Counted from the first letter of the stretch, positions 10,387 through 36,900 are shown. The stretch is 64,000 bases of DNA from an uncultured Candidatus Saccharibacteria bacterium (GCA_964594735.1 CAZQMS010000002.1:50023-114022); one strand, 5' to 3'. Notes: a model not told the origin generated them from the sequence alone. Numbers and translations are program-made.

Positions 10387-10742
10387 AACAGTCTTGCGCC
10401 GCTGCACGCGACGCATATAATACTGAGGTGAGTGCCACAAAGTGTGGCTCGCAGATTGAAAGTCGCTGAAGTACCGCCCGCAAGGGCGGTATTCAGTTTC
10501 TCCCGCACAACAGTCATGCAAAAGCACCCCTTGCGGGGTGCTTTTGAAGGGCGCACTGCGGAGGACGGGTGCGAGCTCCAAAAAGTGAAAGTCTTATGTG
10601 AGTGCCGCCGCCCTCCGCGATGCGTCCTTTTCTATCTGCTGAAAGCGTAGCACCGAGAACATGTTTGGCAAGCGTTCGCGAGCGAAAAAAATTGTGCATA
10701 CATGGACGCGAGTTATCCTGTGAAAGTGTTCTCATATAATTA

Positions 10743-10789
10743 TTATCTACATCAGAAATTCATTTTCAAAAAATAAAAAGTTATCCACA
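10743..10789. promoter_or_regulatory. Two DnaA-box-like 9-mers (TTATCTACA at 10743-10751, perfect TTATCCACA at 10781-10789) inside a ~200-bp AT-rich island
   Basis: Read directly from the sequence. Surrounding 10700-10900 is ~70% AT in a ~60% GC window. Confidence 0.35.
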
Positions 10790-10887
10790 TAATTATTTCA
10801 AAAAACATTTCTTTCCGTGCATGAGTGCAATAATAAAACAAACGCTGTAGCGTTTCGCGCGCGAAGCGAAGGTCGAGTTTAATACTC

Positions 10888-10977
10888 ATGAAAAAAATTA
10901 CATCTATGGCAAAGAAAAAGAAGGCGAAAAAGACAGCCAAGAAAAAGAAGGCCACGAAGCGCAAGAAGCGCGCGTAG
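10888..10977 (+). CDS. Micro-ORF encoding a 29-aa (or 23-aa from the second ATG at 10906) highly Lys-rich peptide
   Basis: MKKITSMAKKKKAKKTAKKKKATKRKKRA*. It is preceded by an AT-rich region and immediately followed by a strong intrinsic terminator. Below the 60-aa ORF track cutoff. Confidence 0.3.
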   Translation: MKKITSMAKKKKAKKTAKKKKATKRKKRA

Positions 10978-10982
10978 TCTCG

Positions 10983-11008
10983 AAAAAGCCCCCGCAAGGG
11001 GGCTTTTT
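10983..11008 (+). terminator. Rho-independent terminator (GC hairpin AAAAAGCCCCCGCAAGGGGGCTTTTT)
   Basis: Perfect 7-bp GC stem with a GCAA loop, flanked by an A-tract and a T-tract. Confidence 0.6.
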
Positions 11009-11220
11009 CATTTTCAAACATTTTCAAACATTACCGTGGCGCAGCCACGGCTGTAATTGAAGATTGAAAATGAAAAAGCGACCGGAGCCGGGGACCCTTC
11101 GAGCGGGGAGGTGAGGTGGGGCCTGCGCGCGCTCGCGTAGCGAGCGACGCGTGGGCTTTTTTATAGGGTGCTGCATGGTATTGCACAGCTCGCGCAGTTC
11201 ATGGAAGAAGAAGTCGCAGA

Positions 11221-15972: not shown

Positions 15973-16034
15973 CGCTGTCCACACTATCTCGCCTGAGCGA
16001 GCAACCGAGATTCGGCTCAATGTATACTTATCTC

Positions 16035-17018
16035 ATGGCAGATGAGATATACCTCGGCAACACGACATATGTATCTTCAAAGCGCGCGGCAAAGGAATAC
16101 GGCTACGCGCAGGACTACGTCGGGCAGCTTGCGCGTGGTGGAGTCATCGACGCGCAGCGCGTAGGCGGGCTCTGGTACGTGAATCCCGCCTCGCTCGAGG
16201 CGTATAAGCGCAATGCTGAGGCCTATGTGCCAAAGATTGCAGAATCCTCCATACGCCCTCCTGAGGCCGCAGACACGCTTATAACCTTCGACGGCAAGGA
16301 TTACGTCTCCGCGGCCAAGGCAGCGCGCCTCACAGGCTACAACCCAGACTACGTGGGGCAGCTCGCGCGCGCCGGCAAAGTGCTCTCCAGGCAGATTGGG
16401 AACCGCTGGTATGTAGAGCGCGATGGACTTCTTGCGCACAAGGCGCAGAAAGACGCGCTGCTTGCAAACGTACAGGCAGAGTCCGTGGGCCTCGTGCGCC
16501 CCGTACAGCCTGCACCTGCGCCGCAAAAGGCAGAGGAAAGGCCTGTGTCGTTCTACACCTATTCGAGGGACGAGAAGCACCTTATGCCGGTGATGAACAA
16601 ACCACAGCCAACAGAGGACGGTCGACATGCGGCGACTGATGTGAACGTGGGGACGAATAGCGCGGTGCGAAGCACGGAGCTGGAGGTACTGCCGAATACC
16701 GTACCGATACGCATCGTCCAGACCCCCGTTCGTGCCAGTGTCGCACCGCGCGCAGAGGCAGCGGCGGTGCCGCTTCGCCGGGGTCGGACATCCGGAATGA
16801 CTAAGAGTCTAGCGCTCAAAGCGGGAGTGGCTCTCACGGTGGTGATCGTGATGTCGTACGGCTTTGCGTCGATCAAGAGCGAGTCACTCTATGCGATGTA
16901 CGACGCAGCCGACCTCAGCGCAGTCGAGACCATGACGGCGAATGCCGCGAGCGGACTAGATGCCCTCCTAGACCTCTTGGAAGCCGCTGTGAGCAACGAA
17001 GTTCACTATTCTCGCTGA
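16035..17018 (+). CDS. Membrane protein with two tandem excisionase-like HTH_17-type domains and a C-terminal TM helix
   Basis: Two internal repeats (YVSSKRAAKEYGYAQDYVGQLARGGVIDAQRVGGLWYV and YVSAAKAARLTGYNPDYVGQLARAGKVLSRQIGNRWYV) match the HTH_17 pattern. There is a TM helix at aa ~265-285. The longest ORF starts at 16020. Confidence 0.6.
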   Translation: MADEIYLGNTTYVSSKRAAKEYGYAQDYVGQLARGGVIDAQRVGGLWYVNPASLEAYKRNAEAYVPKIAESSIRPPEAADTLITFDGKDYVSAAKAARLTGYNPDYVGQLARAGKVLSRQIGNRWYVERDGLLAHKAQKDALLANVQAESVGLVRPVQPAPAPQKAEERPVSFYTYSRDEKHLMPVMNKPQPTEDGRHAATDVNVGTNSAVRSTELEVLPNTVPIRIVQTPVRASVAPRAEAAAVPLRRGRTSGMTKSLALKAGVALTVVIVMSYGFASIKSESLYAMYDAADLSAVETMTANAASGLDALLDLLEAAVSNEVHYSR

Positions 17019-17361
17019 GTATCCCACAGTCGATAGCCACAAAGCGGCGCCCGAAAGGGCGCCGCTTGTCATTTGTGCGTTGCACGCGCGAAATGTCGCT
17101 TTACATCGTTGCTCGGGAGTCCGAGTCGGCGCGGAGGTGCGGGTAGGTACGAGGCGAGAGGTTGTAGTGACGAGAATTCTTAAAAAAAGCGGAGAATTTT
17201 TTGCGCGTTGAAGCGAACTCGGAAGAAAAAAATAAAAAATGTCCGATACGAAATTCGTGTAATGTTTTCCACACAAAATCGTGTCCAATATGCGTCCAAT
17301 ACACGAAAAGACTAGTAAACTGTTAGATAAATCGTGCATCCGGCCTGATGAACAAACGCTC

Positions 17362-20300
17362 ATGAGCAACGAAATTTTCTTCGACGGATTGAAGTACATC
17401 TCGGCCGGCGATGCGTCTGAGACTACGGGACTTTCGCGTGACTATATCGCGAGACTTTGTCGCGACGGAAAGCTTCGCGGAAGGCGGGTTGGGAAGAACT
17501 GGTACGTCGATGAAGAGTCGCTCAGGCGTTTTGGTATCGAACAGGAGCATCAGAAGGCGGTGCGTAGGGTGCAGCTGTCGGAAGAGAGGGTGCGAGAGTA
17601 CCGCGGCGCGGCGGACAAGCCGCAAAGTTTAAAGTTGCAAGTAGAAAGTGAAAAGGCGACGGCCGTGACTGCGGTCACGAGCCATGAGTCACCAGTCACC
17701 CCCAAGGTGGCGCAACCAGTTGCGCCGACGGCCGTGACGAAAACATTTGCGGCGCACGCGAAGCACGTGCAGGACAAGCTTGCGGCCGCAGCGCTCGCAC
17801 AAAGTGCGAGAGTCGCACATGCGATGCCGTCTATCGCTGCAGCACCAAGTGGTGTGCATGAAGCGGTCGCACGTACGCTCAGCCATGCGCACGTGCATGT
17901 GCCGGTGTACACGCTCACACCTGCGGCGGAATTCTTGCAGAAGTTCGTTGCAATCTTTGTTGCGTTCACCATGACATTTGGCACGTACGCTTTTGTAGAC
18001 CCGGCGTACGCACGCTTTGCGGTAGAGTCTGCTCGCGGATTTCTCGCGAGCACTACAGAGTCGCTCGCACGCATTGATGACGCTGCTGATCGCGCGATGC
18101 GTGTGGCGCATAGCTCTGCGTACTTCGCTGCGGAGAATCCTGAGGTGGCGCTCGCGCAAGTCTCGAGCGCGACGCTCGCATTTATCCCGAACGCGCTGCA
18201 GAATCTCGCGCGCTCGTTCAACACGAGTGTCGACACCTTTGTCTACAACATCCTTTTCTCCGACGGTGCGACGAATTCTCTCGCGCTCACGCCGCTCGAC
18301 CCAGGATTTGTGGACGCGACAGCGCCGTATGAGCGTGCGCAGCAATTGGCAGCGCAGACATCTGTGCCACCCACCGTCGCAACGAGTACGACGACCGTCA
18401 TCACCAATGAGCGAATCGTCGAGCGCATCATTGAGACGGAGCGTATTGTCGCCGCGGCGGGCGGCATCAACGATGCGGACCTCGAATTGCGTCTTTCGGC
18501 GCTCGAGCAGCGCCTCACAGGCCTCGTCGCCGGTGTCTCTACGGCACAGACCACAAGCGTGAACAACGTCTACCAGACAGTGGCGCTCACCAACAAAATC
18601 GACCAGCTCAGTAGCGTCGACATTTCGGACTCTACGATTACGGGGGGCACCCTTTCGGGAGTGTCGCTGAGCGATATTTCATTCTCCGGTACCGCCACCA
18701 CGACCTTCGCCAATGGGATTGACCTTGCCGACGGGTGCTTCGCCGTAGATGGCGCGTGTATCACCGGCGGCGGTGGCTCTGTAGACACGAGCGTCTCGAA
18801 CAACTGGACGGCGCTCCAGATATTCTCAGGCGGTGCATCGAGTACCAACTTCTCCAACTTTGGTACCGCGTACTTCGGCGGCAGCGCGACGACGACCATC
18901 GACTCGACGGGGGCGCTCTCGCTCGCTAACCTCACCAATTCACTCTTGTGGGTAAATGGTAGCGGCACGGTCGCCGCGACGACGACGCCTACCGCCGCCT
19001 ATTTCATCGCCACGTCTACATCCCTTGCTTCTTCGTTCCCGTACGCATCATCGACCGCACTCTCCGTCTCGGGCACCGCATTCTTCCCCGGCTCCGGTAT
19101 CTGGGATTCATCCGGCAACGTCGGTGTTGGGGACACAACTCCAAGCTATGCACTCGATGTCAATGGCGTCGTGGCAACCAATAATTACTTCTTCAATACA
19201 AACACTGCGGCAACGCAAGTTCTCCTGAATAGTGGAACGACGTATTACGGTAACATTCAAAATGAAAGTGGTTCGCCGGACCGCTGGTCACTCGGGTATG
19301 GCACTACAAACACCACGGCACTCAAGACGCCGGTTCTCACTTGGACGAGTGGCGGAAATGTAGGTATTGGTACTTCGACGCCGTGGGCGAAGTTCTCGAT
19401 TGCGAACTCGACGGGCGACACCGCTGGCCAAGCGCTCTTCACCATCTCCTCCTCGACCGCATCTGCGACGACGACGCTCTTCCACGTGGCGAATAGTGGG
19501 AATGTGGGGGTGGGTACATCCAGTCCCATGGGGTTGTTTTCAGTGAGTGGTCAAATGACGAGTGACAGTTGGTGTTCGAACACACTCAGTGTCTGTGTGT
19601 ATCCTAGCAGCGGATTTTTCGCTATACGTAATCGGGCTAATAGCGCGTACGCACCAGTCTCGTTGGCTAACGTCTACTTTGGTGACGCGAATGTATATGT
19701 TGGTGGCGCAGGCATCACTGACACAGGGTCAACTCTTACGGTGGGAGGGAATTTAAGTGCCCATGCGTTTTATGACAAGGGCAACACTGCCTATTATCTA
19801 GACCCCGCGGCGGCAACATCTCTCATTGTTGCCGGCAAGGTCGGTGTGGGCACTACGTCGCCACTCGCCAAATTCGCAGTGCACGCTAACAACGGCGAGA
19901 CCAATACGCGGCTCTTTGAAATCGCATCTTCGACTGCGAGTGCGACGACAACACACTTTGTAGTGACCAACAGCGGGAATGTGGGTGTTGGGACAGCGAG
20001 TCCGTCAGGAAAATTGCACGTTGAAAACGGTAGATTTCTGGCAACAAGAAGTTCCAACAGCAAAGCGGCACACATCGCGTCGTTTGGTTCTTCGGCTAGC
20101 GCGGGGAACTCCTTGATAATTTACGGCGGAAACAATAGCGGAGACCCAATGTACATCGGCACAGACTACTGGTCTTCCGATGGTCAGTTGAGACTCGGCA
20201 CCTATACGACACCGGATACGATTGCGCTCGCAACGAACGGCAACGTCGGCATCGGGACGACGGATCCTCAGGCACTATTGCAAGTGCGTAAAAATCAGGC

Positions 20301-23300
20301 TGCAAGCACATGGGTTTCGGTTGCAAATTCGAATGCCGGTGGAACGGCAGGGTATCAGATTGGTTATACGAGCGCGGGCGAGATGGCTTCCCTCTATAGT
20401 GATATGGCGACAAATGATTTGTACTTGAAAAACGTTGCTACGGGCGGAGATTTCCGCGTCCTCGTTGAAGACACTACAGAGGCACTGACAATCTTAAACA
20501 CCGGCAACGTCGGCATAGGGACGACGACGCCCGGGTCGCTGCTCAACCTGTATGGAACAGGAAGCGGTACGGAACTTCGAATCGACAATGGTGGTGCCGA
20601 CGGCGACCCGTTCGTAAGCTTTGCACTTTCTGGTACACAAACATGGATTGCGGGAATCGACGATAGCGATAGTGACACGTTCAAGATAAATGCCACTTCC
20701 GGCAACTTCAACACAACAGGCCTCGCCATCACCACTTCCGGCAACGTCGGCATCGGGACGGCGAGTCCGCAAGGTGGTCTTTCCGTTGCGAGCGCGCTCA
20801 CGAGCACATCTCCCAGCGTTGTGGGGTGGCATCTCGGGACAACAGGCGGAACGACAAATGGACTTGAATCGTACAATACCGCAGCTACATACCTCGACTT
20901 CAGCAGTGTTTCGGAGCGCGATTATGATTTCCGACAGATCTTCACCGCCTCCACGAACGATTTACAATTTATTTCTTCTTCTACAAATCCTATCCTAACG
21001 CTCAAAGGAACCGGCAACGTCGGCATCGGGACGGTGAGTCCTGCCACTGCACTGCACATGTTGGGTAACTTCAGGATTCGACCTACTGGCGCCAGTACCG
21101 ACCTCAATATTTTGTTGAATTCTTCCGACCTTAGCATAGAAGGGACCGGTAGCTTGCGGCTGTCGTCGTCAGGTTCATCGCTCAAATACACTGTTGGCGC
21201 CTCGGGTGTTGGCGAAGTAGACCACATCTTTTACGGTGGCGGTTCGACCGCGGTCGCGCGCATTGAATCAAACACGCAGGCCGAGTATGCGAGACTGTCA
21301 CTGCAATCTGGTACCGCAAACAATTTCAGCCAACCCTATTTCACTATCACGTCGAATGGAGGCTCGACTGGCAACATCTTTACACTCAATTCGGCTGGCA
21401 ACGTCGGAGTAGGGACGACGACGCCGTGGGCGAAGTTCTCGATTGCAAACAATACGGGCGACACGGCGGGCCAGGCGCTCTTCTCCATCTCTTCCTCCAC
21501 CGCATCCGCAACGACGACTCTCTTCCACGTAGCGAACAGCGGGAATGTGGGTATTGGGACGGCGAGTCCTAGTTACGGACTGGATGTAACGGGGACAGGA
21601 AGACTTACTTCAACATTTGCGTGGGGTACAAGCGGTGCCACATACATGTACACGATTGGAGGAACGCAGAGGTACGGTTATTCCACAGCGAACGCGAATG
21701 TTCTGTATTCAGGCGGGAGTGGTGGTCTAACGATTTGGAATCAAGCTGACAGCTCGGAACTTGTTCGCATTACCGATTCTGGCAACGTCGGCATCGGGAC
21801 GACGAGTCCGTATAAGCATTTATCGATAAGCAGTAGTGCCAACTCCGACACCTCAGTAGTCATCGCTAATACGCATGCCAGTTTTAGCGCCGCAGTTTCG
21901 TCGACATACCAAACCGCGACCAAACGTTTCGATGCAGGATTGCTCGGTAACAGTAATTCTGTTGCTCCGAACTCATACTATATATACGATTCCAATAACG
22001 ATGCATTCCGCTTCATTGTGGGCGCGACGGGTAACATTGGTGTCGGTACAACAAGTCCGACCAACAAGCTCTCAATCGAGTCCAACACTGCGACGATTGG
22101 AGGACTTGCGGAAAATCTCAGGGTTGCAGGGGATCAGTACGAAGTAGGCATCGGGCTCGCGAACTACGGCTCTGGCGGCAACACATGGTCGCTCATGGCA
22201 ACGCGGGGGAACTCGTCTTTCGGAGGTGCAAAATTCCTCATCGCTGATTCCGCAGCTAACCGTTTCGCAATCGACTCCTCCGGCAACGTCGGCATCGGGA
22301 CGACGTCGCCACTTACGAAACTTTCAGTTCAGGGCACTGCGGGTGACAACGACGTCTTCAACGTCGCGTCGTCGACGGGTGCGAGCATGTTCTATGTCGA
22401 TTCGAGCGGGAAGGTCGGCGTGGGCACGATGACGCCTGATTATGCCTTCACCGTAAGCGGCACCGCTGCGACGTATGCCAGCGTGCAAAATTCCGCCGAT
22501 GAAGAAGCCGGTATTTTCTTCAGCACTGCAGCAAACGGCGGCAACGGCTGGGCACTGTTTATGGACGGGTCCAACGTAAACGATTTGGGCGCGACGCACA
22601 GGCTCGGCTTCTATTCCACAGATCTCAGTGCGACCACGATGACGCTCGACGGTGTGACGGGGAATGTGGGAATCGGGACGACGACGCCGTACAGCAAGCT
22701 CACAGCATGGGGCGGCGCGAGCGGCAACATTTTTGAAGCGGTCACGTCGGCCTCGACCACGGCGCTTCGCATCGCGGCAGATGGATTTGCGACGACGACA
22801 CTTTCCGGTCTCAGCATCAGCGGCAGCGCGACATCCACGTCCAACGTCGGCTTCAACCTCACTGCCGGCTGCTTCTCTATAAATGGTACGTGCGTCGGTG
22901 GGGGCAGTGGTTCGGGTACGGTCGGTAGCGGCACTACGGGGTGGTTCCCGTACTATGCGGGAGATGGCACGACACTCACCGCCACCTCCTCGATCTTCCT
23001 CGCAACAAGCGGCAAGATCGGCATCGGGACGACGACGCCGCGCAGGGGGCTGTCTGTTGTATCTTCTTCAGCGGCAGACACCAATGCCGAGTTTACGAGT
23101 ACGGCAAATGACGGATTTGGGGGATTCAACATATACAATAACTTCGGCACGCTCGTTACATCACTAGTCCACTCCAATGCCGGGGCAAGCGTTAATGCCA
23201 GTTCGACCTGGTTTGGTACAAGAAATGATGAGTCGCTACATCTTGTCACCAATGGCGCAACTCCGCGCCTGACTATCGACTCTTCCGGCGACGTCGGCAT

Positions 23301-24477
23301 CGGGACGACAACTCCGCGCTCGTTGCTCCATGTGGCGGGTACCGACCTCAGCTCGTTCACCGGCACAAGCAACGGCCTGCTGACTGTCGACGGTACATCG
23401 GGCAACAATTCGTATTATCAGGCGATCGATTTCAACGCGAGCGTAGTGAATGGGCGCACAACCCCCTTGGCGCGAATCGCGTCGCAGCGAACTGGGTCTG
23501 GCTCGTACCTCTACTTCGGTACGTCGAACAGTTATGCATCTGGTATTACCAACACCGCTCTTACGATTAATCCGAGTGGCAACGTCGGTATCGGTACGAC
23601 GACGCCGTATGCGAAGCTGACCGTATGGGGAAGCGGGACGGGGACGAATCCGCTGAGCGAGTGGGTCGACAGCGCGTCGACCACGATTGCGCGCATCCTC
23701 GAGAACGGCACGGCGTATTTCGCGGGCAACCTCGGCGTGGGCACCACATCGCCATTCCGCAAATTCTCGGTGACAGCGGCAGCAGCGAATCCGCAGGTGG
23801 CTATCTCGTACGACGATTCCACGGTTGCCTCGCTCCAGGTAGATTCGACGGGCGACCTCATCGTGACGGCGAGCGGACAGAATGTACTCCTCAACGACGA
23901 CAACATGCTCGTCTGCGCATCCGGATGCCCCACGTCGCCGACCGGCGCGGGCAAGCTCTACGTAGAGACGGCAGCGGGAATAGGCACCACGACTCCTGCG
24001 GCCAAGCTCACCATAGAGACGCAAGACAGCTCGACCAACTTCATCCAGGTCGCTTCGACCACCGCGCAGTCTATATTTGTCATCAATGCCAACGGCAACG
24101 TGGGCGTGGGTACGTCGACGCCGTTTGCCAAATTCACCGTGGGTGCAAATGGCGCGATTGCGACGGTAGAAAACAGCCTCTCCGATGGCGCGACGGTGGC
24201 TATCAACTGGCGCGACGGCAACCAGCAGAAGGTCGTGCTCGGCGGCAACCGCACGATTACATTCTCCAACTTCATCGCCGGACAAATCCTGCGCCTCGTC
24301 GTCTGCCAAGACGGCACGGGAAGCCGCACGCTCACGTGGCCTGCCGTCGTGCGCTGGCAGGGGGGAAGCGCGCCGACACTCACCACTACCGCCAACAGCT
24401 GCGACCTCGTCTCATTTGTCGCGACCAATGCCACGTCGAGCTTGGTGGTCTTTGGTGCTGCGGCGTTGGACTTCTAA
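17362..24477 (+). CDS. Giant fibre protein A (~2370 aa). Excisionase-like HTH N-terminal domain, single TM helix, long Thr/Gly/Ser-rich beta-helix-like repeat region with GNVGIGTTTP repeats, and a distinct C-terminal tip domain without S74.
   Basis: N-terminus MSNEIFFDGLKYISAGDASETTGLSRDYIARLCRDGKLRGRRVGKNWYV. TM helix FVAIFVAFTMTFGTYAFV. More than 15 copies of [GS]GNVG[IV]GT[TA][ST]P...K[LF]. The ORF track start at 17281 is probably an N-terminal over-extension. Confidence 0.85.
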   Translation: MSNEIFFDGLKYISAGDASETTGLSRDYIARLCRDGKLRGRRVGKNWYVDEESLRRFGIEQEHQKAVRRVQLSEERVREYRGAADKPQSLKLQVESEKATAVTAVTSHESPVTPKVAQPVAPTAVTKTFAAHAKHVQDKLAAAALAQSARVAHAMPSIAAAPSGVHEAVARTLSHAHVHVPVYTLTPAAEFLQKFVAIFVAFTMTFGTYAFVDPAYARFAVESARGFLASTTESLARIDDAADRAMRVAHSSAYFAAENPEVALAQVSSATLAFIPNALQNLARSFNTSVDTFVYNILFSDGATNSLALTPLDPGFVDATAPYERAQQLAAQTSVPPTVATSTTTVITNERIVERIIETERIVAAAGGINDADLELRLSALEQRLTGLVAGVSTAQTTSVNNVYQTVALTNKIDQLSSVDISDSTITGGTLSGVSLSDISFSGTATTTFANGIDLADGCFAVDGACITGGGGSVDTSVSNNWTALQIFSGGASSTNFSNFGTAYFGGSATTTIDSTGALSLANLTNSLLWVNGSGTVAATTTPTAAYFIATSTSLASSFPYASSTALSVSGTAFFPGSGIWDSSGNVGVGDTTPSYALDVNGVVATNNYFFNTNTAATQVLLNSGTTYYGNIQNESGSPDRWSLGYGTTNTTALKTPVLTWTSGGNVGIGTSTPWAKFSIANSTGDTAGQALFTISSSTASATTTLFHVANSGNVGVGTSSPMGLFSVSGQMTSDSWCSNTLSVCVYPSSGFFAIRNRANSAYAPVSLANVYFGDANVYVGGAGITDTGSTLTVGGNLSAHAFYDKGNTAYYLDPAAATSLIVAGKVGVGTTSPLAKFAVHANNGETNTRLFEIASSTASATTTHFVVTNSGNVGVGTASPSGKLHVENGRFLATRSSNSKAAHIASFGSSASAGNSLIIYGGNNSGDPMYIGTDYWSSDGQLRLGTYTTPDTIALATNGNVGIGTTDPQALLQVRKNQAASTWVSVANSNAGGTAGYQIGYTSAGEMASLYSDMATNDLYLKNVATGGDFRVLVEDTTEALTILNTGNVGIGTTTPGSLLNLYGTGSGTELRIDNGGADGDPFVSFALSGTQTWIAGIDDSDSDTFKINATSGNFNTTGLAITTSGNVGIGTASPQGGLSVASALTSTSPSVVGWHLGTTGGTTNGLESYNTAATYLDFSSVSERDYDFRQIFTASTNDLQFISSSTNPILTLKGTGNVGIGTVSPATALHMLGNFRIRPTGASTDLNILLNSSDLSIEGTGSLRLSSSGSSLKYTVGASGVGEVDHIFYGGGSTAVARIESNTQAEYARLSLQSGTANNFSQPYFTITSNGGSTGNIFTLNSAGNVGVGTTTPWAKFSIANNTGDTAGQALFSISSSTASATTTLFHVANSGNVGIGTASPSYGLDVTGTGRLTSTFAWGTSGATYMYTIGGTQRYGYSTANANVLYSGGSGGLTIWNQADSSELVRITDSGNVGIGTTSPYKHLSISSSANSDTSVVIANTHASFSAAVSSTYQTATKRFDAGLLGNSNSVAPNSYYIYDSNNDAFRFIVGATGNIGVGTTSPTNKLSIESNTATIGGLAENLRVAGDQYEVGIGLANYGSGGNTWSLMATRGNSSFGGAKFLIADSAANRFAIDSSGNVGIGTTSPLTKLSVQGTAGDNDVFNVASSTGASMFYVDSSGKVGVGTMTPDYAFTVSGTAATYASVQNSADEEAGIFFSTAANGGNGWALFMDGSNVNDLGATHRLGFYSTDLSATTMTLDGVTGNVGIGTTTPYSKLTAWGGASGNIFEAVTSASTTALRIAADGFATTTLSGLSISGSATSTSNVGFNLTAGCFSINGTCVGGGSGSGTVGSGTTGWFPYYAGDGTTLTATSSIFLATSGKIGIGTTTPRRGLSVVSSSAADTNAEFTSTANDGFGGFNIYNNFGTLVTSLVHSNAGASVNASSTWFGTRNDESLHLVTNGATPRLTIDSSGDVGIGTTTPRSLLHVAGTDLSSFTGTSNGLLTVDGTSGNNSYYQAIDFNASVVNGRTTPLARIASQRTGSGSYLYFGTSNSYASGITNTALTINPSGNVGIGTTTPYAKLTVWGSGTGTNPLSEWVDSASTTIARILENGTAYFAGNLGVGTTSPFRKFSVTAAAANPQVAISYDDSTVASLQVDSTGDLIVTASGQNVLLNDDNMLVCASGCPTSPTGAGKLYVETAAGIGTTTPAAKLTIETQDSSTNFIQVASTTAQSIFVINANGNVGVGTSTPFAKFTVGANGAIATVENSLSDGATVAINWRDGNQQKVVLGGNRTITFSNFIAGQILRLVVCQDGTGSRTLTWPAVVRWQGGSAPTLTTTANSCDLVSFVATNATSSLVVFGAAALDF
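19363..19525 (+). repeat. ~165-bp unit repeated at 21398-21565 (same gene) and 35365-35530 (giant gene B), ~85-90% identity
   Basis: All three encode GNVG[IV]GT[ST]TPWAKFSIAN[SN]TGDTAGQALF[TS]ISSSTASATTTLFHVANSG. Confidence 0.75.
22655..22915 (+). repeat. ~260-bp segment ~90% identical to 34555-34815 (giant gene A vs B)
   Basis: Both encode TTTPYSKLT[AV]WGG..GNIFEAVTSASTTALRIAADGFATTTLSGL.ISGSATSTSNVGFNL..GCF.INGTCVGGGSG, with largely identical DNA. Confidence 0.75.
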
Positions 24478-24483
24478 TCATCT

Positions 24484-24969
24484 ATGACAACTATTCACCA
24501 ATTCGAAGACATGATGGCCTGGAAGAAGGCGAGGGAGCTCGCACGCGAGGTCTACACGGCGTTGCGCAGCAACAAGGACCGCGGATTTACCGACCAGATT
24601 CAGAGGGCAAGCGTTTCTGTCGTCTCGAACATCGCAGAAGGATTTGAAAGCGGCACGCGCGATATGTTCCTCAATTATCTCTACATCGCAAAAGGTTCGT
24701 GTGGGGAAGTGCGCGCGCAGCTCTACATCGCACACGACATCGGATACATAAACGTTCAAACATTTACATATTTGAATGACCTTGCTTTGCAGACTTCGCG
24801 GCTGATTTCTTCTTTCATCAAAGCGCTCAAGGGTTCGCCTCATCAGGGACTGCAGAGGAAGAAGGAACAGACGAAAGAAGAGAAATCCACAGAAGAATTT
24901 CTCCAGGATGCGCGCAAAGAACTAGCGAAAGTGATGCCGCACATATACGGGGTGGATGCGAAGAAATGA
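24484..24969 (+). CDS. Four-helix-bundle protein (23S rRNA intervening-sequence protein family, PF05635/TIGR02436) with a Lys/Glu-rich C-terminal tail
   Basis: DMMAWKKARELAREVY...SVVSNIAEGFESGTRDMFLNYLYIAKGSCGEVRAQLYIAHDIGYI matches the family consensus. Starts 7 bp after giant gene A. Confidence 0.85.
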   Translation: MTTIHQFEDMMAWKKARELAREVYTALRSNKDRGFTDQIQRASVSVVSNIAEGFESGTRDMFLNYLYIAKGSCGEVRAQLYIAHDIGYINVQTFTYLNDLALQTSRLISSFIKALKGSPHQGLQRKKEQTKEEKSTEEFLQDARKELAKVMPHIYGVDAKK

Positions 24970-27900
24970 ATATGTATAAACGTTTTAACATTCAAGGTGT
25001 AATGGAAAATGCGTGGCGCTGGCGGCTCGTCATAGCTGCAGCTCTGGCTATCGGCTACTTCACCGCGCAATTCGCCCTGCTCCAGCTCCCGCAGGCGGAG
25101 GCGGCGTATACGATAGGCAACAGCGCGCGCTTCAACGACGATGATAGCGCGTATCTCACGCGCACTCCTTCTTCCGGTGGTAATCGCCAGAAGTTTACCC
25201 TCAGCGTCTGGTTCAAGCGCGGCAACTTGTCGACCGCGCAGTACATATTCCAGGCGGGTGCTGACAACAACAACCGGACCATAGTCGGGGAGTTTCGAAG
25301 CGCTGGATCAGTGGACGCAATTCGAGTCGCGCAAGTCGACGCTGGTGTAGTAACTCTTCTTGAGGATACCTGTGGCGTGTTTCGTGACCCTGCCGCTTGG
25401 CAACACCTTGTGGTGGCTGTCGATACCACTCAAGCCGCTGGGGCAGATCGGGTGCGTGTGTACGTCGACGGTATACAGCACGACCCTTGCACGAGCGAAA
25501 CAACGATTACACAAAATACAAACACGTACGTAAATCACACGGTTGCACAGTACGTAGGCACCAACTTGGGCACAGGGAGCTTTTACGACGGCTATATGGC
25601 AGATGTGCACTTCATCGACGGGCAGGCGCTCACACCGAGCGACTTCGGCGAATACGACGACAACGGCTACTGGCGGCCTAAGAGTTACACGGGCACGTAC
25701 GGTACCAATGGCTTCAAGTTCAATTTCGGCAACGGAAGCGAACTCGGCGACGACGTAAGCGGCAACGCGAACGACTGGACGGCCACCAACATGGACGCAA
25801 CCGACCAAGTCATCGACACGCCGACAAATTCGTTTGCAACCTGGAATTACCTTGTACAAAGCGGTATCTCTCAAGGCAACTTGCGAGCTGTCACGATCGG
25901 TAGTTACAGCACGACAGGTTTTCTGCACCTAACCGACATTCCGGTGGAAAGCGGATCATTCTACTGCGAGGTGACGCAGGTTAGCGAAACTGATGCGGTC
26001 ACTGCGGTCGTCGGAGTATACGCCCCTTCCGCTGCGGTATACACACAGGCCGGATCGGAGCCGTACCGTGTCGCATACCGCAGCGACGGTCAAAAGGACG
26101 TTGTTGGTACTGCATCAGCATACGGCGCTTCATGGGATCCGGGAGACATTATCGGTGTCGCACTCAATGCGAGCACAAATGCAGTCGAATTCTACAAAAA
26201 CGGATCTGCGCAAGGCAGTATCGATATTCCGTTTTCGGGCCCGTACGTGCTTCTCGTTCACGACCATACCGGGTCCCAGACGGCGACCCTCGATTTGAAC
26301 TGCGGTCAGGGTGGGCAAAGCGGTCTCACGTACGACAGCGCGAGCGGAGGATACTTTGAATACACGCCACCAAGCGGTTTCAAGGCGCTCTCCACATCCA
26401 ATCTGCCCGAGCCGGATGTGGCGGTGCCCAAGAATTATTTTGATGCGGTGACGTACACAGGCACGGGTGCGCCGCTCAACGTCCTCCAGACGGGTACAAG
26501 CACCAATGGGACGGGCTTCATACCTGACCTTGTGTGGCTCAAGGGCAGAGCCACGTCGACGAGCCATGGTCTTTTCGATTCAATCCGCGGAGTGGTGCAG
26601 CGGCTCGCGCCAGAAGTGAATACTGCGGAGACTACGGAGACAGAATCGCTCACCGGTCTCGTGCCGCTTGGGTACGTATCGCAGCTCACCAATCCCGGCG
26701 GCAACAACGAGCTGGACAACGCGCGCGGTGTCTTTGTGGTCGGCAACTACGCATACGTCACCAACGAAACGCGTGACTCTCTTGCGGTGATAGACGTATC
26801 CGACCCTGCGAATCCAACATTCGTGACTGAGGTGCGGAACCCCAATGGCAGCAACGAACTCGATGGCGCGCGAGGCATATACGTCAGCGGCAACTATGCG
26901 TACGTGGCTACCGTTACTCGTGACTCACTCGCCATCATCGACATCTCGAATCCGCTTAGCCCCAGCTTTGTGACCGAGGTCATAAGCCCCAATGGTAGCA
27001 ACGAGCTCGATGGTGCAACGGGGGTGTATGTTTCGGGAAATTACGCGTATGTCGCCGCAGCCACCCGAGACTCACTGGTCATTCTCGACATTTCCAACCC
27101 CGCAAGCCCGAGCTACGTGTCAGAAGTGCGCAGTCCAGGGGGCAACAATGAACTCGACGGTGCCTTTAGTGTGTTCGTGCAGGGCAACTACGCCTATGTG
27201 GCCAACCTCACCCGCGATTCACTCGTGGTCATCGACGTTTCCACCCCGGCGAGCCCGAGCTTCCTCGCTGAGGTGCGCGACCCAGGAGGACAAAACGAGC
27301 TCAATGGCGCAGCTGTTGTGTCTGTGCAGGGGAACTACGCATACGTATCTGCGAATACACGGGATTCGCTCGTCGTTATCGATATATCCACTCCGGCGAG
27401 TCCGAGCTACGTGACAGAACTCCGTACGGGTTCGGGCGGTCTGCTCAATGCCATACACGGACTCTACGTGTCGGGCAGCTATGCATACGCCACAGCGGAG
27501 GCGCGTGACTCACTCGCCATTATCGATATATCGACCCCGACAAGCCCGAAGTTTGTCACCGAAGTTCGCCCCGGAGGAACCGATGGCCTTCTCAACGGAG
27601 CGCGCGGAGTCTTTGCGCTTGGCGACTATGTGTACGTAACCACCGGAGCAGGTGATGCGTTCACGATTATACAGGCGACCGATTGGCCGAGCGGCTTTAC
27701 GGTCGGTACCGATACCGAGTTCAACTACTCCGGAGAGACGTACGCCTCATGGCTCTGGAAAGAAAGTGTGACGAGCGGCTTCGATATCGTGACGTATACC
27801 GGTACCGATGCGAGCAATCGCAATGTATCGCATTCGCTCGGTGTCACACCGGACTTCGCCATCGTCAAGGATCGCAACAATGCGATGAGCTGGTACGCGT

Positions 27901-29102
27901 GGCACAGCTCGTTTTCGGGAGCGACCACATTCGCGATAGTCGATACGGATGCCGCCACGTCGACCACGAGTTCACCGTGGGGGACCGGGAGTTGGACATC
28001 GTCTACATTCCGCGTCACCAACGACGCAACCAACAACACAAACGCGCTGGATATTACAGGTACGGAACTGCTTCTCCAGGGCGACGGTGCAGATGCCGCG
28101 ACGACTTTTACAGACAGCTCTCCGGTCGGTCGCACCATGACCGCCAACGGCAACGTGCAGATAGACACTGCGCAGAGCAAGTTCGGTGGTTCATCAATAC
28201 TTTTCGACGGGACAGGCGACTACCTGAGCGTGGCAGACAACGGTGATTTCGACTTTGGTACAGGGAACTTCACGATCGATGTGTGGGTCCGCTTCACCGA
28301 CAGCACCGGAAGTCACACAATCCTGAGCGGGCTTGATAGCGGCGACCTGATGTTTGCCAAAGATACCGATGGCTCCTTGCGCTGGGGTCGGTCACTCGTC
28401 GCATGGGACACGATTACCCCCGACCTGACGTGGACCAACGGCGTCTGGTATCACCTTGCGGTGACGCGTTCTGGCAATTCCGTGAGGATATTCAGGGATG
28501 GTGTGCTGATAGATACCGAGACAGAGACCCAATCGTACAACGTTACGACGACCTTTGCCGTAGGGCAGCGCGAGGGCACACACTTTTTCAACGGGCACAT
28601 GGATCAGCTCCGTATCGACAAAGGTACGGCGCGTTGGACGGCGGCGTTTACACCCTCGACTGTCGCGTATCACGACGGCAGCTACGTCGCCTACCTCTTT
28701 GCTGCAAAGGAGGGCTTTTCCGACTTTGGCATCTATACGGGCAATGGCAGTGCGGACGGGCCGTTCGTATACACCGGCTTTAAGCCGCGGTTCATCATGT
28801 TTAAGCGCACCAACAGTACAGCCAACTGGCGCATCATGGACTCGGCTCGCTCGACGTACAACCCTGCCACGCACCTCCTTTTCCCGAGCGTATCCACCGC
28901 AGAGACGACCACTGACTCGGTGGACTTCCTCGCCAATGGTTTCAAGCTCCGTAGTACAAGCACCAACATAAACGGAGGCAGCAACCAGTATATCTATGCC
29001 GCATTTGCCGACGTGCCCTTTAAATACTCGGCAAGCACGCCAGCAGTAGAGGCGGGTGTGAACAACGGATTTATTCCGTTCCTCATCGGAATGGAGATAT
29101 GA
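24966..29102 (+). CDS. Large surface protein (1378 aa): signal-anchor, ConA-like/LamG lectin-like domains, an 8-blade LVIVD-repeat beta-propeller, and a C-terminal Laminin_G_3 domain
   Basis: Eight ~42-aa repeats of the form GNYAYVA..TRDSLxVIDVSxPxSPSxVxEVRxPGGxNELDGA (LVIVD repeat, PF08309). C-terminal ...GNFTIDVWVRF...WYHLAVTRSGNSVRIFRDGVL...GHMDQLRID is a LamG-like lectin fold. ATGA overlap with the upstream gene. Confidence 0.85.
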   Translation: MNMYKRFNIQGVMENAWRWRLVIAAALAIGYFTAQFALLQLPQAEAAYTIGNSARFNDDDSAYLTRTPSSGGNRQKFTLSVWFKRGNLSTAQYIFQAGADNNNRTIVGEFRSAGSVDAIRVAQVDAGVVTLLEDTCGVFRDPAAWQHLVVAVDTTQAAGADRVRVYVDGIQHDPCTSETTITQNTNTYVNHTVAQYVGTNLGTGSFYDGYMADVHFIDGQALTPSDFGEYDDNGYWRPKSYTGTYGTNGFKFNFGNGSELGDDVSGNANDWTATNMDATDQVIDTPTNSFATWNYLVQSGISQGNLRAVTIGSYSTTGFLHLTDIPVESGSFYCEVTQVSETDAVTAVVGVYAPSAAVYTQAGSEPYRVAYRSDGQKDVVGTASAYGASWDPGDIIGVALNASTNAVEFYKNGSAQGSIDIPFSGPYVLLVHDHTGSQTATLDLNCGQGGQSGLTYDSASGGYFEYTPPSGFKALSTSNLPEPDVAVPKNYFDAVTYTGTGAPLNVLQTGTSTNGTGFIPDLVWLKGRATSTSHGLFDSIRGVVQRLAPEVNTAETTETESLTGLVPLGYVSQLTNPGGNNELDNARGVFVVGNYAYVTNETRDSLAVIDVSDPANPTFVTEVRNPNGSNELDGARGIYVSGNYAYVATVTRDSLAIIDISNPLSPSFVTEVISPNGSNELDGATGVYVSGNYAYVAAATRDSLVILDISNPASPSYVSEVRSPGGNNELDGAFSVFVQGNYAYVANLTRDSLVVIDVSTPASPSFLAEVRDPGGQNELNGAAVVSVQGNYAYVSANTRDSLVVIDISTPASPSYVTELRTGSGGLLNAIHGLYVSGSYAYATAEARDSLAIIDISTPTSPKFVTEVRPGGTDGLLNGARGVFALGDYVYVTTGAGDAFTIIQATDWPSGFTVGTDTEFNYSGETYASWLWKESVTSGFDIVTYTGTDASNRNVSHSLGVTPDFAIVKDRNNAMSWYAWHSSFSGATTFAIVDTDAATSTTSSPWGTGSWTSSTFRVTNDATNNTNALDITGTELLLQGDGADAATTFTDSSPVGRTMTANGNVQIDTAQSKFGGSSILFDGTGDYLSVADNGDFDFGTGNFTIDVWVRFTDSTGSHTILSGLDSGDLMFAKDTDGSLRWGRSLVAWDTITPDLTWTNGVWYHLAVTRSGNSVRIFRDGVLIDTETETQSYNVTTTFAVGQREGTHFFNGHMDQLRIDKGTARWTAAFTPSTVAYHDGSYVAYLFAAKEGFSDFGIYTGNGSADGPFVYTGFKPRFIMFKRTNSTANWRIMDSARSTYNPATHLLFPSVSTAETTTDSVDFLANGFKLRSTSTNINGGSNQYIYAAFADVPFKYSASTPAVEAGVNNGFIPFLIGMEI
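26640..27660 (+). repeat. Eight tandem ~126-bp repeats encoding the LVIVD beta-propeller blades
   Basis: Recurrent ...GGCAACTACGCATACGT... / ...GACTCACTCG...ATCGAC... units visible in nucleotide and protein sequence. Confidence 0.7.
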
Positions 29103-29671
29103 CACATGGAGAACGACGTATGAAAAACGAATCACATAAAACGAAAAACGAAGTACGAAGTACGAAGTGCGCGAACTCGTATAAGGAGTTCTACATGACG
29201 GGCATTGCAATCTTACTTCTTGCATCGTGCTTCATGCTTCGTCCTTACATTGTCTCGGGTGGTTCTATGGAGCCGACGCTATCCGCAGGCGATGTCGTGA
29301 TAGTTGAAAAGTTGAGTCACCGGTTCGACAAGCTCACGGCAGGCAGATTCGGCATCAGTCGAGGCGACATCTTGGTGCACCGCAATCCGCACCAGAAAGA
29401 GGTGATTGAAGTGAAGCGGGTAGTAGGCATGCCGGGTGAGCTCGTGGAGCTTGGCGAGGATGGGGTGACGGTCACGGATAGCGAGGGAAGAATCACGAAG
29501 TATGAAGCAGGAAGCACGATAGGCGGGACGAACAATGGGGCATTTCGCATCCAGCTTAGTCCCGAAGATTACTTCGTCCTCGGAGACAACCGCAGCAAGA
29601 GTAGCGATGGCAGAGATTTTGGAGCAGTACAGAAGGCAGACATTATCGGCACATTATTAATCACCTTATAA
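29099..29671 (+). CDS. lepB: Type I signal peptidase (S26 family)
   Basis: SGGSMEPTL catalytic Ser box, VHRNP, RVVGMPGE and GDNRSKSSDGR boxes, with an N-terminal TM anchor. ATGA overlap with the LVIVD gene. An alternative start lies at 29192. Confidence 0.85.
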   Translation: MTHGERRMKNESHKTKNEVRSTKCANSYKEFYMTGIAILLLASCFMLRPYIVSGGSMEPTLSAGDVVIVEKLSHRFDKLTAGRFGISRGDILVHRNPHQKEVIEVKRVVGMPGELVELGEDGVTVTDSEGRITKYEAGSTIGGTNNGAFRIQLSPEDYFVLGDNRSKSSDGRDFGAVQKADIIGTLLITL

Positions 29672-33900: not shown

Positions 33901-36900
33901 CGCAAGGTATCAACCTGTCAGGTGGATGCTTCTCAATAAATGGTACGTGCGTCGGAGGGAGTTCCGTTTCATCGCTCAACAATCTTTCTGATGCTGCTTC
34001 CGATAGCGACACGCTCTATCTCGGTACCAATGTCGGGGGTGACCCCAGCTTTTCTGGCGACGTGGTAGTTGGACCGGGGGCATTGAGCGCTTCTAGCGAA
34101 TCAAGCGGAAACGCTATTTTGGGATACCAGGCGGCGTCTGCAGGCAGTGCAATCCATCAGTTGTCCGTGCTCGGCTACGATGCATTTAGAAATATTAATA
34201 GCACAACGGGCGGCGTGGCGATCGGTCTGAATGCTGGGTACGGCGAGTCCGGGCTCTACAGCGCAAGCGGCTTGGTACTAGTGGGCTACCAAGCGGGGTA
34301 CAAGTTGCAGACTGGCGCCAACGAGAATACGCTCATCGGCCAAAATTCGGGGTACGAGCTTACGACAGGCTTGGGCAACGTTCTCATCGGTTCGTCCAAT
34401 TCGGTAGCATCGCGCGAGCAGGTAACCACTGGCAATCGCAATATCGCTATCGGTTATCGGGTAGCGTTGCCAAGCCAAACCGCAAACTACCAGCTCAACA
34501 TCGGCAATCTCATATATGGCACGGGGCTCGATGGTACGGACTACACCGTCTCCACTGGCAACGTCGGCATCGGGACGACGACGCCGTACAGCAAGCTCAC
34601 CGTGTGGGGCGGCAGCACCGGAAATATATTTGAGGCGGTCACGAGTGCGTCGACGACCGCGCTTCGCATCGCGGCAGATGGATTCGCGACGACGACACTG
34701 AGCGGCCTCAACATCTCCGGCAGCGCGACGTCCACGTCCAATGTAGGCTTCAATCTCTCCGGCGGATGCTTCGCAATCAATGGCACGTGTGTCGGGGGAG
34801 GCAGTGGCGGCGTCGCGCTAGGCGATGAAAATACCTGGACGGCGCTCCAGACATTCCAGCTCGGACTATTGTCGCAAGCGTCTTCGACCATCGGTGGCGG
34901 TACTGCTACAACAGGTCTCACCATTTCAGGTACCGGTACAACTACCGGCGCTCACTACGTGGGCGGCGGGCTCACCGTCAATAGCTCTACTGGCAGTTCG
35001 TTCTTGGGAACAGGGGACGTGTATCTCGGAAGTGGGACGCTCGTACAAGGTTTGGGTGGCGCACCCGACCTTTCTGTCGAGGGTTATATCAACACGAATG
35101 CCGGGATTAACACTGGTGGCGATGTGCGAATCGGTGGTAGTAGCGCGTCGATCTGGACTGCGCTCGGCGGTTCCGCTGACTTGGGAGTACAAGGTTGGAT
35201 AAATGCGAATACAGGACTTCAAACTGCGCAGGGTAGCGCTTCTACCCCTGGCCTGGTGTTTTACTCCACAAACAACACCGGCATATTCGCGACAGATGCA
35301 AATGCGAGCGCCGGCCTCGGATTTTCGACACAGGGTAGTGAAAGATTGCGGATAAGCAACACGGGCAACGTCGGCATCGGGACGACGACCCCGTGGGCGA
35401 AGTTCTCGATTGCCAACTCGACGGGCGACACCGCGGGTCAGGCGCTTTTCACCATCTCCTCCTCGACCGCGAGCGCGACCACAACGCTCTTCCATGTGGC
35501 CAACAGTGGCAAAGTCGGTGTGGGAACGCAGAGCCCGACCGCACTGTTTACAGTGGAGGGGGGAAATATCGGCATTGATGGTAATGCGTCTGCACAGCAA
35601 TTTTTTGGCGCAGGAGGCAATGTTGCTGGTACGAACACCACTGGCGGCGTTATGACTGTATTCGGCCATGCACCGAATACGTATCAGGACGTGTCGACGC
35701 CGCCGCATGATGGGTCGAACTTCGTAGGTGCTGCTGGATTCATTGCACGCGGATTCAGCGAGTCAGCTCAGTATCGCGGGAGTTTGGAGTTTTTCACAAA
35801 GACGGCAAGCGCAGCAAATGCCACGAGCAGGATGGTCATCACCCACGACGGCAACGTCGGCATCGGGGATACGAGCCCGGCGGCTCTCCTGACAGTGGGT
35901 GCGAACGACCTATTCCAAGTTGATTCATCCGGCAATGTGAGCATCCCCCAAGGCCAGTACCTGCGCTTCGCCGGTGCAACTGCAGACCAAGAGCAAATAG
36001 GATCTACTGCCACAGGACAGCTTGATCTCTTCGCGCGCGGAGCCATCAACGTGATTGCCGACACCAACAACAACGATACTGATGCAGATACCAACGCCTT
36101 TACAGTACGTACGAACGCCACGACGGTCGCCGGAGCCACGAGCCTCTTTTCGGTACGGCAAAGCGGCAACGTCGGTGTGGGGGCAACAGAGCCCAGTCAC
36201 AAACTTACCGTCGCCGGCGGATCCAACGGCGCAGCTTCGACGCTGAAAATCCAAAACACATCCGGTGCCGCCGACTCAACCGCCACCCTATTTCTCAACA
36301 CGAGCTCAAGCGCAAGCGACACCACAGTCGGTGCGCAGATCCAATCTATCCGAACGAATACAGGCGGAGGTGGTAGCAACGAGCTTGCCTTCAGCACAAG
36401 CCTCACGACGACCATGACCGAGCACATGCGCATTCTCGCTTCTGGCAATGTCGGCATCGGTACGACGTCGCCACTTACAAAGCTTTCGATCCAGGGTACT
36501 GCGGGCGCCAACGACGTGTTCAATATCGCATCGTCGACCGGTGCGAGCCTGTTATACGTCAATGCGAGCGGCAATGTTGGAGTTGGGACGGCTTCGCCGG
36601 GCGGGAAGCTCCATGTATACAGCGGTGCTGCCGGCGTATCTGCGAACAGTTCGCTCGATGACTTCGTTATTGAGGGCAGTGGCGACACCGGCATGTCAAT
36701 TCTGACGCCCAACAGCAACACTGCGTACTATGGATTCGGCGACCCAGACGATAGCTTTGTGGCGGGGGTGCGGTATCTTCACGCTTCGGACCGGTTGGAC
36801 CTAATCTCAGGCAACTCGACGGGAGTTTCAGTTCTGGGCACAGGTCACGTCGGCATTGGCAATACTGACGCGGTTTCGCTTCTGACCATCACTGCAGATT

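Follow-up and report, generated by a model that had tools for sequence, protein, structure and literature searches.

Bdellovibrio bacteriovorus carries mosaic adhesive trimer (MAT) fibres, Bd2133 (Protein Data Bank, PDB, entry 8OND) and Bd3182 among them, whose intertwined trimeric beta-helix bears capping loops with the consensus V-G-G/N-pi-x-x-P-x-x-x-L (Caulton et al. 2024, PMC10769870). We analyzed a stretch of DNA of 64,000 nucleotides (nt), contig CAZQMS010000002.1 from 50023 to 114022, called the window throughout, that contains three large genes, P1, P3 and P4, of a related kind; the best description of their products, judging from sequence, would be membrane-anchored, MAT-like, phage-tail-fibre-like surface fibres. 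Segments of DNA recur within and between these genes, and an earlier note on the window took them for near-identical repeats that serve as a substrate for recombination or fibre variation. We put at roughly 75% the reading that the repeats are in-frame structural modules of paralogous fibres, shared by past patchwise exchange and preserved by purifying selection, within a shaft that is variable. Coordinates follow the numbering of the window, and features whose coordinates are written with two dots lie on the + strand.

The giant fibre gene P1 (17281..24477) encodes 2398 amino acids (aa), in which matches to Pfam, PHROG and PDB along the open reading frame (ORF) mark an HTH_17-like N terminus, a single hydrophobic anchor, a shaft with 21 motif copies and a tip that is not of the S74 type. 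P3 (30930..38264, 2444 aa), a giant as well, has 14 motif copies, an S74 domain and then an immunoglobulin-like (Ig-like) domain with an acidic tail. The fibre gene P4 (38294..42514, 1406 aa) combines a helix-turn-helix-like (HTH-like) N terminus, an anchor, UspA1-like head repeats, 4 motif copies, an S74 domain and an Ig-like domain. The motif that punctuates these shafts, GNVGIGTTxPxxKL (n = 39 over the three genes), is the MAT capping-loop motif, known from Bdellovibrio MAT fibres and S74-type phage tail fibres, and it divides short modules of 42 to 49 aa from long ones of about 80 to 130 aa.

Self-comparison of 17-43 kb by BLASTN returned the repeat pairs with expect (E) values of 1e-37 to 1e-69, so they are not chance matches. 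All four sets in the earlier note are real and lie where it had placed them, to within about 10 nt, and off-diagonal segments above 80% identity are present. Unit 165 occurs twice in P1, at 19354..19545 (aa 692-755; motif, 48-aa short module, next motif) and 21397..21588 (aa 1373-1436), and once in P3, at 35364..35555 (aa 1479-1542). Its copies share 76-79% of their DNA over 192 nt, 80-85% over a core of 151-173 nt and 90-95% of their protein sequence, with a synonymous divergence (dS) of 0.9-1.2. Unit 254 links P1 (22657..22910, aa 1793-1876) with P3 (34554..34807, aa 1209-1292) at 82% nt and 92% aa identity (dS 0.69). Unit 150, the GIGTTSPLTKLS unit, has a motif copy at each side and links the same two genes (P1, 22279..22428, aa 1667-1716; P3, 36441..36590, aa 1838-1887) at 82% nt and 84% aa identity (dS 0.75). 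Two further pairs were absent from the earlier note. Unit 135, in the conserved stalk of P1 (18784..18918), has its partner in P4 (39608..39742; 75% nt and 84% aa identity, dS about 1.9), and a patch encoding the Ig-like C-terminal domain, at 37824..38101 in P3 and 42095..42372 in P4, is the best repeat in the region, with 88-89% nt identity, exact runs of 66 and 52 nt and abrupt edges. All copies are in frame, in one codon phase and in one orientation. No inverted repeat in the window is longer than 31 nt or more than 86% complementary, and Tandem Repeats Finder (TRF) found no tandem array in the fibre genes.

The term near-identical did not hold for the units listed earlier, which are 75-85% identical in DNA; within units 165, 254 and 150 the longest exact run is 32 nt. 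The DNA is only this similar because purifying selection has acted on the protein since the units came to be shared. Per repeat pair, 20-32 differences fall at codon position 3, compared with 1-10 at each of the other positions; nonsynonymous divergence (dN) is 0.05-0.16 and dS 0.7-1.2 for the listed units, a dN/dS of about 0.05-0.15. For calibration, orthologues between the window and its closest relative, L001 (secA, gatB, the GAPDH gene and both ends of P1), give a dS of 0.7-1.6 and a four-fold-site identity of 0.45-0.57; the repeat copies, with four-fold-site identities of 0.39-0.61, fall in a similar range. Since copy dS is comparable to orthologue dS, the listed units have been diverging about as long as the two genomes. 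The Ig-like pair (dS 0.30, four-fold-site identity 0.81) is the only clearly younger patch.

The shafts also differ between related species. L001 has 73-85% DNA identity to the window in the genes flanking the fibre region. Its P1 orthologue is 70-100% identical in protein outside aa 612-2148 and only 20-30% identical, that is, unalignable, inside. The variable cassette (19114..23724) runs from the first to the 20th motif; the BLASTN blocks stop at 19104 and resume at 23732, both within 10 nt of motif copies, at 19114 and 23725. In the four genomes compared (the window and three relatives), P1 orthologues of 1335, 2145, 2256 and 2398 aa have motif counts of, in the same order, 5, 11-12 (the motif pattern makes the difference), 5 and 21, and all four have the N terminus and the tip in common. 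P3 and P4 together, 11.6 kb, are missing from L001. In their place, at 23476-24233 of L001, lie a stub of P3 (an ORF of 74 aa that begins with 51 residues 76% identical to the P3 N terminus), an unrelated 185-aa membrane protein and then the GAPDH gene, which is direct evidence for loss or replacement of genes at the P3/P4 site. Related species thus differ in how long their fibres are, in what these are composed of and in how many genes encode them.

How the units came to be shared can be judged from their edges, order and ages. If they were remnants of one old whole-gene duplication, with everything else diverged beyond recognition and no later exchange, the strong constraint on the patches (dN/dS as above) and the collinearity of most shared units between P1 and P3 would be expected. 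We nevertheless consider such an origin improbable. Unit 254 is out of order, lying after units 165 and 150 in P1 and before both in P3, and P1 has two copies of unit 165 where P3 has one. The dS of the patches spreads several-fold, from 0.30 to about 1.9, pointing to events at different times. Their edges are abrupt rather than graded: nt identity stays near 25% up to the motif, leaps to 60-100% at its very first base and, for units 165 and 150, drops back after the next motif, and the flanks of the first copy of unit 165 are down to about 25% identity within 15 nt. Sharing is specific to this genome; copies within it are 84-95% identical in protein, whereas the best match in any other genome reaches at most 74% and that in the closest relative only 64%, the L001 orthologue lacking close copies of the modules despite gene ends that are 82-100% identical. 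Discrete edges, noncollinear order, genome-specific sharing and differing ages therefore argue for repeated patchwise duplication or conversion, against a single old duplication of whole genes. We infer that the exchange took place by recombination at the motif.

The opposite possibility, that the long repeats currently drive frequent deletion, expansion or conversion of fibres within populations, is closer to what the earlier note proposed, and it draws on several of the same features. The repeats are direct, in one orientation and codon phase, so that exchanges would stay in frame; the Ig-like patch is younger, with its long exact runs; shaft length varies among relatives; and the motif DNA is homogenized. 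Still, we regard it as unlikely. The listed units are 15-25% diverged, their exact runs do not exceed 32 nt, and their synonymous divergence is at the between-species level, which means that it is long since any exchange renewed them. The window holds no silent cassettes, invertible segments or recombinase, nor, among the ORFs scanned, a reverse transcriptase. A crossover between P1 and P3 would delete the signal peptidase gene at 29099-29671, and therefore only conversion would be tolerated between them. No polymorphic variants were retrieved from genome or metagenome contigs. Homology-dependent recombination needs a minimal processing segment and falls steeply with divergence. Given their divergence and short exact runs, the long units would serve only weakly as recombination substrates now; what stands of the earlier proposal is past exchange of modules and a fibre length and content that differ between relatives. 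Nor do we share the concern that short-read assembly is error-prone here. A chimeric or collapsed repetitive region might be suspected in an assembly of metagenome type, and the only public copy of P1 (P0001) is the identical sequence; yet the ORFs of 7.2, 7.3 and 4.2 kb are uninterrupted, exact repeats reach at most 66 nt, and gene order and gene ends agree with three independent assemblies. Collapse would not yield copies that differ from one another, mostly at synonymous sites, over 15-25% of their positions. We find an artefact very hard to credit.

The past patchwise exchange that we favor can be set out as follows. Every long shared unit is a discrete patch made up of one motif and a short module, in most cases with the following motif as well. 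Such units were probably duplicated within P1 or exchanged between P1 and P3 or P4 at several past times, and purifying selection on the protein has preserved them afterwards. What changes over evolutionary time is the shaft from the first to the penultimate motif, while the membrane-proximal N terminus and the distal tip are kept. Because all copies share one codon phase, unequal exchange between motif strings would add or remove whole modules in frame. The present potential for recombination would lie mainly in the exact motif strings of 21-31 nt and in the Ig-like patch with its exact runs of 52-66 nt.

Several points weigh against this account. Patch edges do not prove crossover at the motif, because selection for intact modules would give the same edges, and no recombination event was observed directly. 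Relatives at strain level were absent from genome contigs, and metagenome contigs held only distant ones. Each dS was estimated from only 45-92 codons per pair. On the protein side, an AlphaFold2 (AF2) monomer of a shaft segment, predicted from a single sequence, reached a predicted local distance difference test (pLDDT) score of only 35, and both trimerization and surface display rest on homologues.

The motif is conspicuous in its DNA as well as in its protein sequence. One form of it, the canonical 24-mer GGCAACGTCGGCATCGGGACGACG encoding GNVGIGTT, lies at 20239..20262 and, in exact copies, at 21781, 22282, 34557, 35364, 40604 and 40847. With 21-nt copies at 20740 and 21013, nine copies share an identical 21-mer; their flanks are unrelated, with about 25-30% identity, the random level. 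The earlier note had counted more than 15 copies of a 20-mer. The string it quoted is 23 nt long and has 7 exact copies (9 for its first 20-21 nt), and the larger count is right only if up to three mismatches are allowed (20 copies, 0 expected). Among the 39 motifs, codon identity is 0.514, whereas simulating with the codon usage of these genes gives an expectation of 0.326 (z 11.8). In 25 of the 39 copies the motif's third Gly is encoded by GGG, a codon with a background share of 13%. Codon usage or simple codon context is insufficient as a cause of this uniformity, since, of the Gly codons that precede ACG, 19-35% are GGG elsewhere and 64% within the motif, in addition to the z of 11.8. In the relatives L001, L002 and L004 the motif DNA is not homogenized; in L005 and L006 it is homogenized with other strings.

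We had considered the canonical string as a case of lineage-specific concerted evolution, but a scan of one genome per species overturned this, finding GGCAACGTCGGCATCGGGACGACG to be widespread. Exact copies occur in at least 120 genome stretches, at loci with a GC content of 28-62%. Among the matches listed (loci L012-L131 and L157-L367), the taxa include many Patescibacteria classes, Gammaproteobacteria, Elusimicrobia, Omnitrophica, Planctomycetales, Bdellovibrionales, Acidobacteriota and several archaeal groups, the copies lie mostly in AT-leaning ORFs, and the viral stretches include giant-virus contigs. In one locus, L106, an ORF of 2666 aa with a GC content at third codon positions (GC3) of 0.23 has seven exact copies. 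Where the host ORF is AT-rich (GC3 0.16-0.37 with the motif excluded), the string stands out as a sharp GC island confined to codons 0-7. These genome loci were picked for carrying the string, and the unbiased check was a degenerate pattern matching every encoding of GNVGIGTT in viral contigs. It returned 246 instances with 206 distinct strings, most of them in line with the local AT-rich codon usage. Nevertheless, GGCAACGTCGGCATCGGGACGACG was the commonest string (5 observed, 0.008 expected); 16 instances lay within one mismatch of it (0.13 expected), at 9 loci (0.13 expected); and GC3 in the motif was 0.38, compared with 0.27 for the amino-acid-matched GC3 of the same ORFs (p 2e-5). An exact scan of viral contigs found the canonical string in at least 120 stretches (median host-ORF GC3 0.37), the likeliest AT-rich synonymous string in 92 and another all-GC3 synonymous string in 1. 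The over-representation of GGCAACGTCGGCATCGGGACGACG beyond codon usage is real.

What maintains it is a matter for more tentative thought. One can envision GGCAACGTCGGCATCGGGACGACG as a nucleotide-level anchor allele, common to Patescibacteria, other bacterial phyla, DPANN and other archaea, phages and giant-virus contigs, kept apart from host codon usage and acting as a common recombination handle for module shuffling, spread by conversion and horizontal exchange; we hold this to be possible and prefer it to the alternatives, while doubting that it is the answer. The motif would be the only homology between otherwise unrelated shaft modules, so that short-patch conversion would be confined there; conversion of the motif may be GC biased, and horizontal exchange would spread one allele. 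An alternative is a nucleotide-level function of the string, such as a small hairpin. With its flanks, GGCAACGTCGGCATCGGGACGACG folds better than shuffled sequences (z -2.2 to -2.9); the complementarity of the predicted stem has a p of 0.06 after near-canonical copies are removed, and some control pairs are also significant. The footprint of an intein or homing endonuclease found no support as a source of the string, inteins in homologues sitting at TALTVSG|T, off the motif. That conserved site holds inteins with an inserted NYN nuclease domain in the homologues P0018, P0020, P0022 and P0034, and in the window it is intein free (P1, 19057-19077; P4, 39791-39811). A second encoding, GGGAATGTGGGnATnGGGACGACG, also recurs, at 19498, 19975, 21541 and 22660 in the window, where it is mostly the motif that closes a short module; it is present in unrelated genomes and viral contigs as well (L030, L035, L038, L054 and L075).

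That the genes are fibre genes, as the earlier note had stated, is borne out by PHROG, PDB and Pfam matches. The shaft modules of P1, P3 and P4 match the PHROG tail-fibre families 9942 and 18345 (E 1e-21 to 1e-48), with 28-32% identity to cyanophage and pelagiphage fibre genes. By phmmer, the shaft modules of P1 and P4 match Bdellovibrio MAT structures (8OND, the Bd2133 tip, E 1e-9; 8OJN, E 4e-8); the alignments span the motif and the next module and leave the N-terminal region uncovered. Pfam places HTH_17 at aa 40-84 of P1, whose hydrophobic segment is at aa 221-240; that of P4 is at aa 205-232. The HTH_17-like N terminus is the most widely kept part of the family, recognizable in about 50 of 60 homologues, and the N terminus of P3 differs from it. 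In P4, aa 556-775 match the UspA1 head (PDB 3PR7, E 5e-13). It seems probable, by analogy with these homologues, that the fibres are trimeric. They may bind host cells, as homologues and the episymbiotic life of cultivated Patescibacteria suggest.

The distal ends are of two kinds. Peptidase_S74 (PF13884) scores 41.0 bits in P3, at aa 2112-2165 with the site SDERLK at aa 2112, and 36.8 bits in P4, the curated Pfam cut-off being 22 bits. Both domains are internal: about 280 aa follow in P3 and about 250 aa in P4, including in each a Bact_surface_Ig-like domain (aa 2305-2391 in P3, ahead of the acidic tail; 41.9 bits in P4). Because of this placement, S74 cleavage would free an Ig-like fragment. 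In P4, the S74 domain has S-LAKY-K (41615-41635, aa 1108-1114) instead of the canonical SDxxxK. P1 ends in a tip domain of about 125 aa (24094..24474) common to nine family members, with 92% aa identity to P0002, 71% to P0003 and 44-56% to six others, and a match to the tail-fibre family PHROG 9017 (E 2e-7). An AF2 model of the tip, for which nine sequences were used, is reliable over no more than the final 105 or so residues, as a beta-sandwich (pLDDT 70-86); its matches in PDB by Foldseek are to phage spikes, with template modeling (TM) scores below 0.3. Among the papers searched, none contained the motif peptide, and among those listed, none combined S74 or "chaperone of endosialidase" with a term for Patescibacteria.

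The fibre region is chromosomal. On one side are an O-antigen-ligase-like gene, secA and gatB; on the other are gap (GAPDH), rpiB, transketolase and more housekeeping genes. Between gatB and gap lie five genes for exported or anchored proteins, P1, P2, P5, P3 and P4, with the sole signal peptidase gene of the island (signal peptidase I) among them. The island genes are syntenic in the four genomes, and other phage genes are absent around the fibre genes; the island is cellular, not a prophage. The nearest public relatives of P1 are exclusively from Patescibacteria, including Kaiserbacteria, Parcubacteria and Paceibacterota, and three of them have the same gene neighborhood in their genomes; one is CP066682.1 (859 kb), whose P1 homologue, P0003, is labeled Candidatus Kaiserbacteria. 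Given these relatives and their shared neighborhood, the source organism is most likely Kaiserbacteria-like (Patescibacteria).

P2 (24966-29102, 1378 aa) is a fourth giant gene with a distinct architecture of DUF7483, LVIVD, LamG and SPRY domains. It has six LVIVD blades, with internal repeats at 26706-27568 (147-nt period, 62-71% identity), and matches the phage "virion structural protein" family PHROG 19943 (E 5e-151); its orthologues in the relatives range from 839 to 1952 aa. P5 (29677-30933) is Ig-like. Just upstream of P1, a gene of 332 aa (16020-17018) is kept in all four genomes; its product has two HTH_17-like domains of the kind found at the N termini of P1 and P4, followed by a C-terminal hydrophobic segment, and may be a partner in fibre anchoring or assembly. 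Small genes of mobile type (Y1 transposase, PF05635 four-helix-bundle/Avd-like, NYN and GIY-YIG) stand at differing positions of the island in each genome: at 16449-17111 and 21764-22198 in L001, 16775-17266 and 23123-23782 in L002, 14644-15195 and 18954-19637 in L003 and 10204-10464 in L004. The window's fibre island has one such gene, of PF05635, at 24484-24969. Farther away, upstream of secA, the AT-rich intergenic segment 10700-11030 is 91% identical to L001, above the level of the neighboring genes. Within it are a perfect TTATCCACA box at 10781, a copy with one mismatch at 10743 and, at 10906-10977, a lysine-rich micro-ORF of 23 aa (MAKKKKAKKTAKKKKATKRKKRA) followed by a terminator-like hairpin; Rfam gave no match to 10700-11030. 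The adjoining segment, 10518-10631, has the opposite orientation in L001.

Patescibacteria spend their lives attached to other microbes. The locus suggests that a Kaiserbacteria lineage displays MAT-like, phage-tail-fibre-like fibres from an N-terminal membrane anchor. Turnover of shafts and of gene content between close relatives, with the ends kept, makes these genes concrete candidates for determinants of host range. Should GGCAACGTCGGCATCGGGACGACG act as a shared handle for recombination, the ease with which fibre modules pass between phages and cells would have an explanation. The long repeats themselves are old protein modules and not fresh recombination substrates, and they give no ground to distrust the assembly.

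Among systems in which surface proteins vary, Neisseria pilE/pilS and Borrelia vlsE resemble the locus in having variable parts bounded by conserved repeats, for which conversion-type exchange is plausible. Here, however, all copies are in full-length ORFs with no silent cassettes, the repeats are old, and the window has no meaningful inverted repeats and no recombinase. A diversity-generating retroelement was rejected: mismatches show no adenine specificity (4-13 of 27-49 per pair), their place being the third codon positions, and the window ORFs scanned include no reverse transcriptase. The PF05635 four-helix-bundle gene stands alone, without a reverse transcriptase. A system of invertible segments or tandem arrays was rejected as well, in view of the inverted-repeat and TRF results. 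P4 shares UspA1/YadA-type head repeats with trimeric autotransporter adhesins; it differs in having no C-terminal beta-barrel, no YadA_anchor in the Pfam scan and an N-terminal anchor. The envelope is likely of the monoderm type.

Phages offer closer parallels. The gp37/gp38 locus of T-even phages reportedly uses short conserved motifs at which recombination swaps adhesin segments (an account ascribed to Tetart, Desplats and Krisch, J Mol Biol, 1998). The fibre genes described here are likewise mosaic, with patch edges at a motif whose DNA is more uniform than its surroundings. The T-even exchange is among closely related phages, whereas here one 24-mer extends across bacterial phyla, archaea and viral contigs that differ in base composition, and the exchange at the motif is putative. 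The fibres and spikes of phages with S74 domains, such as the K1F endosialidase and the T5 L-shaped fibre, share PF13884, above its cut-off in P3 and P4, and the Ser-Lys site, SDERLK in P3; in those phages the chaperone domain is C-terminal and released after trimerization, whereas in P3 and P4 it is internal. Cyanophage and pelagiphage fibres are alike in their shaft modules (PHROG 9942 and 18345). Unlike phage fibre genes, these are chromosomal and syntenic, beside secA, gatB and the GAPDH gene, and their products would be held by an N-terminal membrane anchor, not attached to a virion.

The likeness to the MAT fibres goes furthest. It extends from the shaft matches of P1 and P4 and the same capping-loop motif to the presence of both an S74-ended form (P3 and P4) and a form with a non-S74 tip (P1), to one conserved display end with a variable remainder, to several paralogues per genome and to an organism that lives on other cells. 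There are differences too. MAT proteins have a signal peptide and a conserved beta-rich N-domain of about 130 aa, here compared by description, in the position where P1 and P4 have an HTH_17-like domain and a single anchor. The proteins here are two to three times longer, and 250-280 aa with an Ig-like domain extend beyond the S74 domain of P3 and P4. Between relatives it is the shaft that varies here, whereas the tip is emphasized in MAT, and the host is one of the Patescibacteria. The fibre type itself is thus known; what is new is the presence in Patescibacteria of MAT-like, S74-type mosaic fibres whose anchor differs and whose S74 domain is internal.

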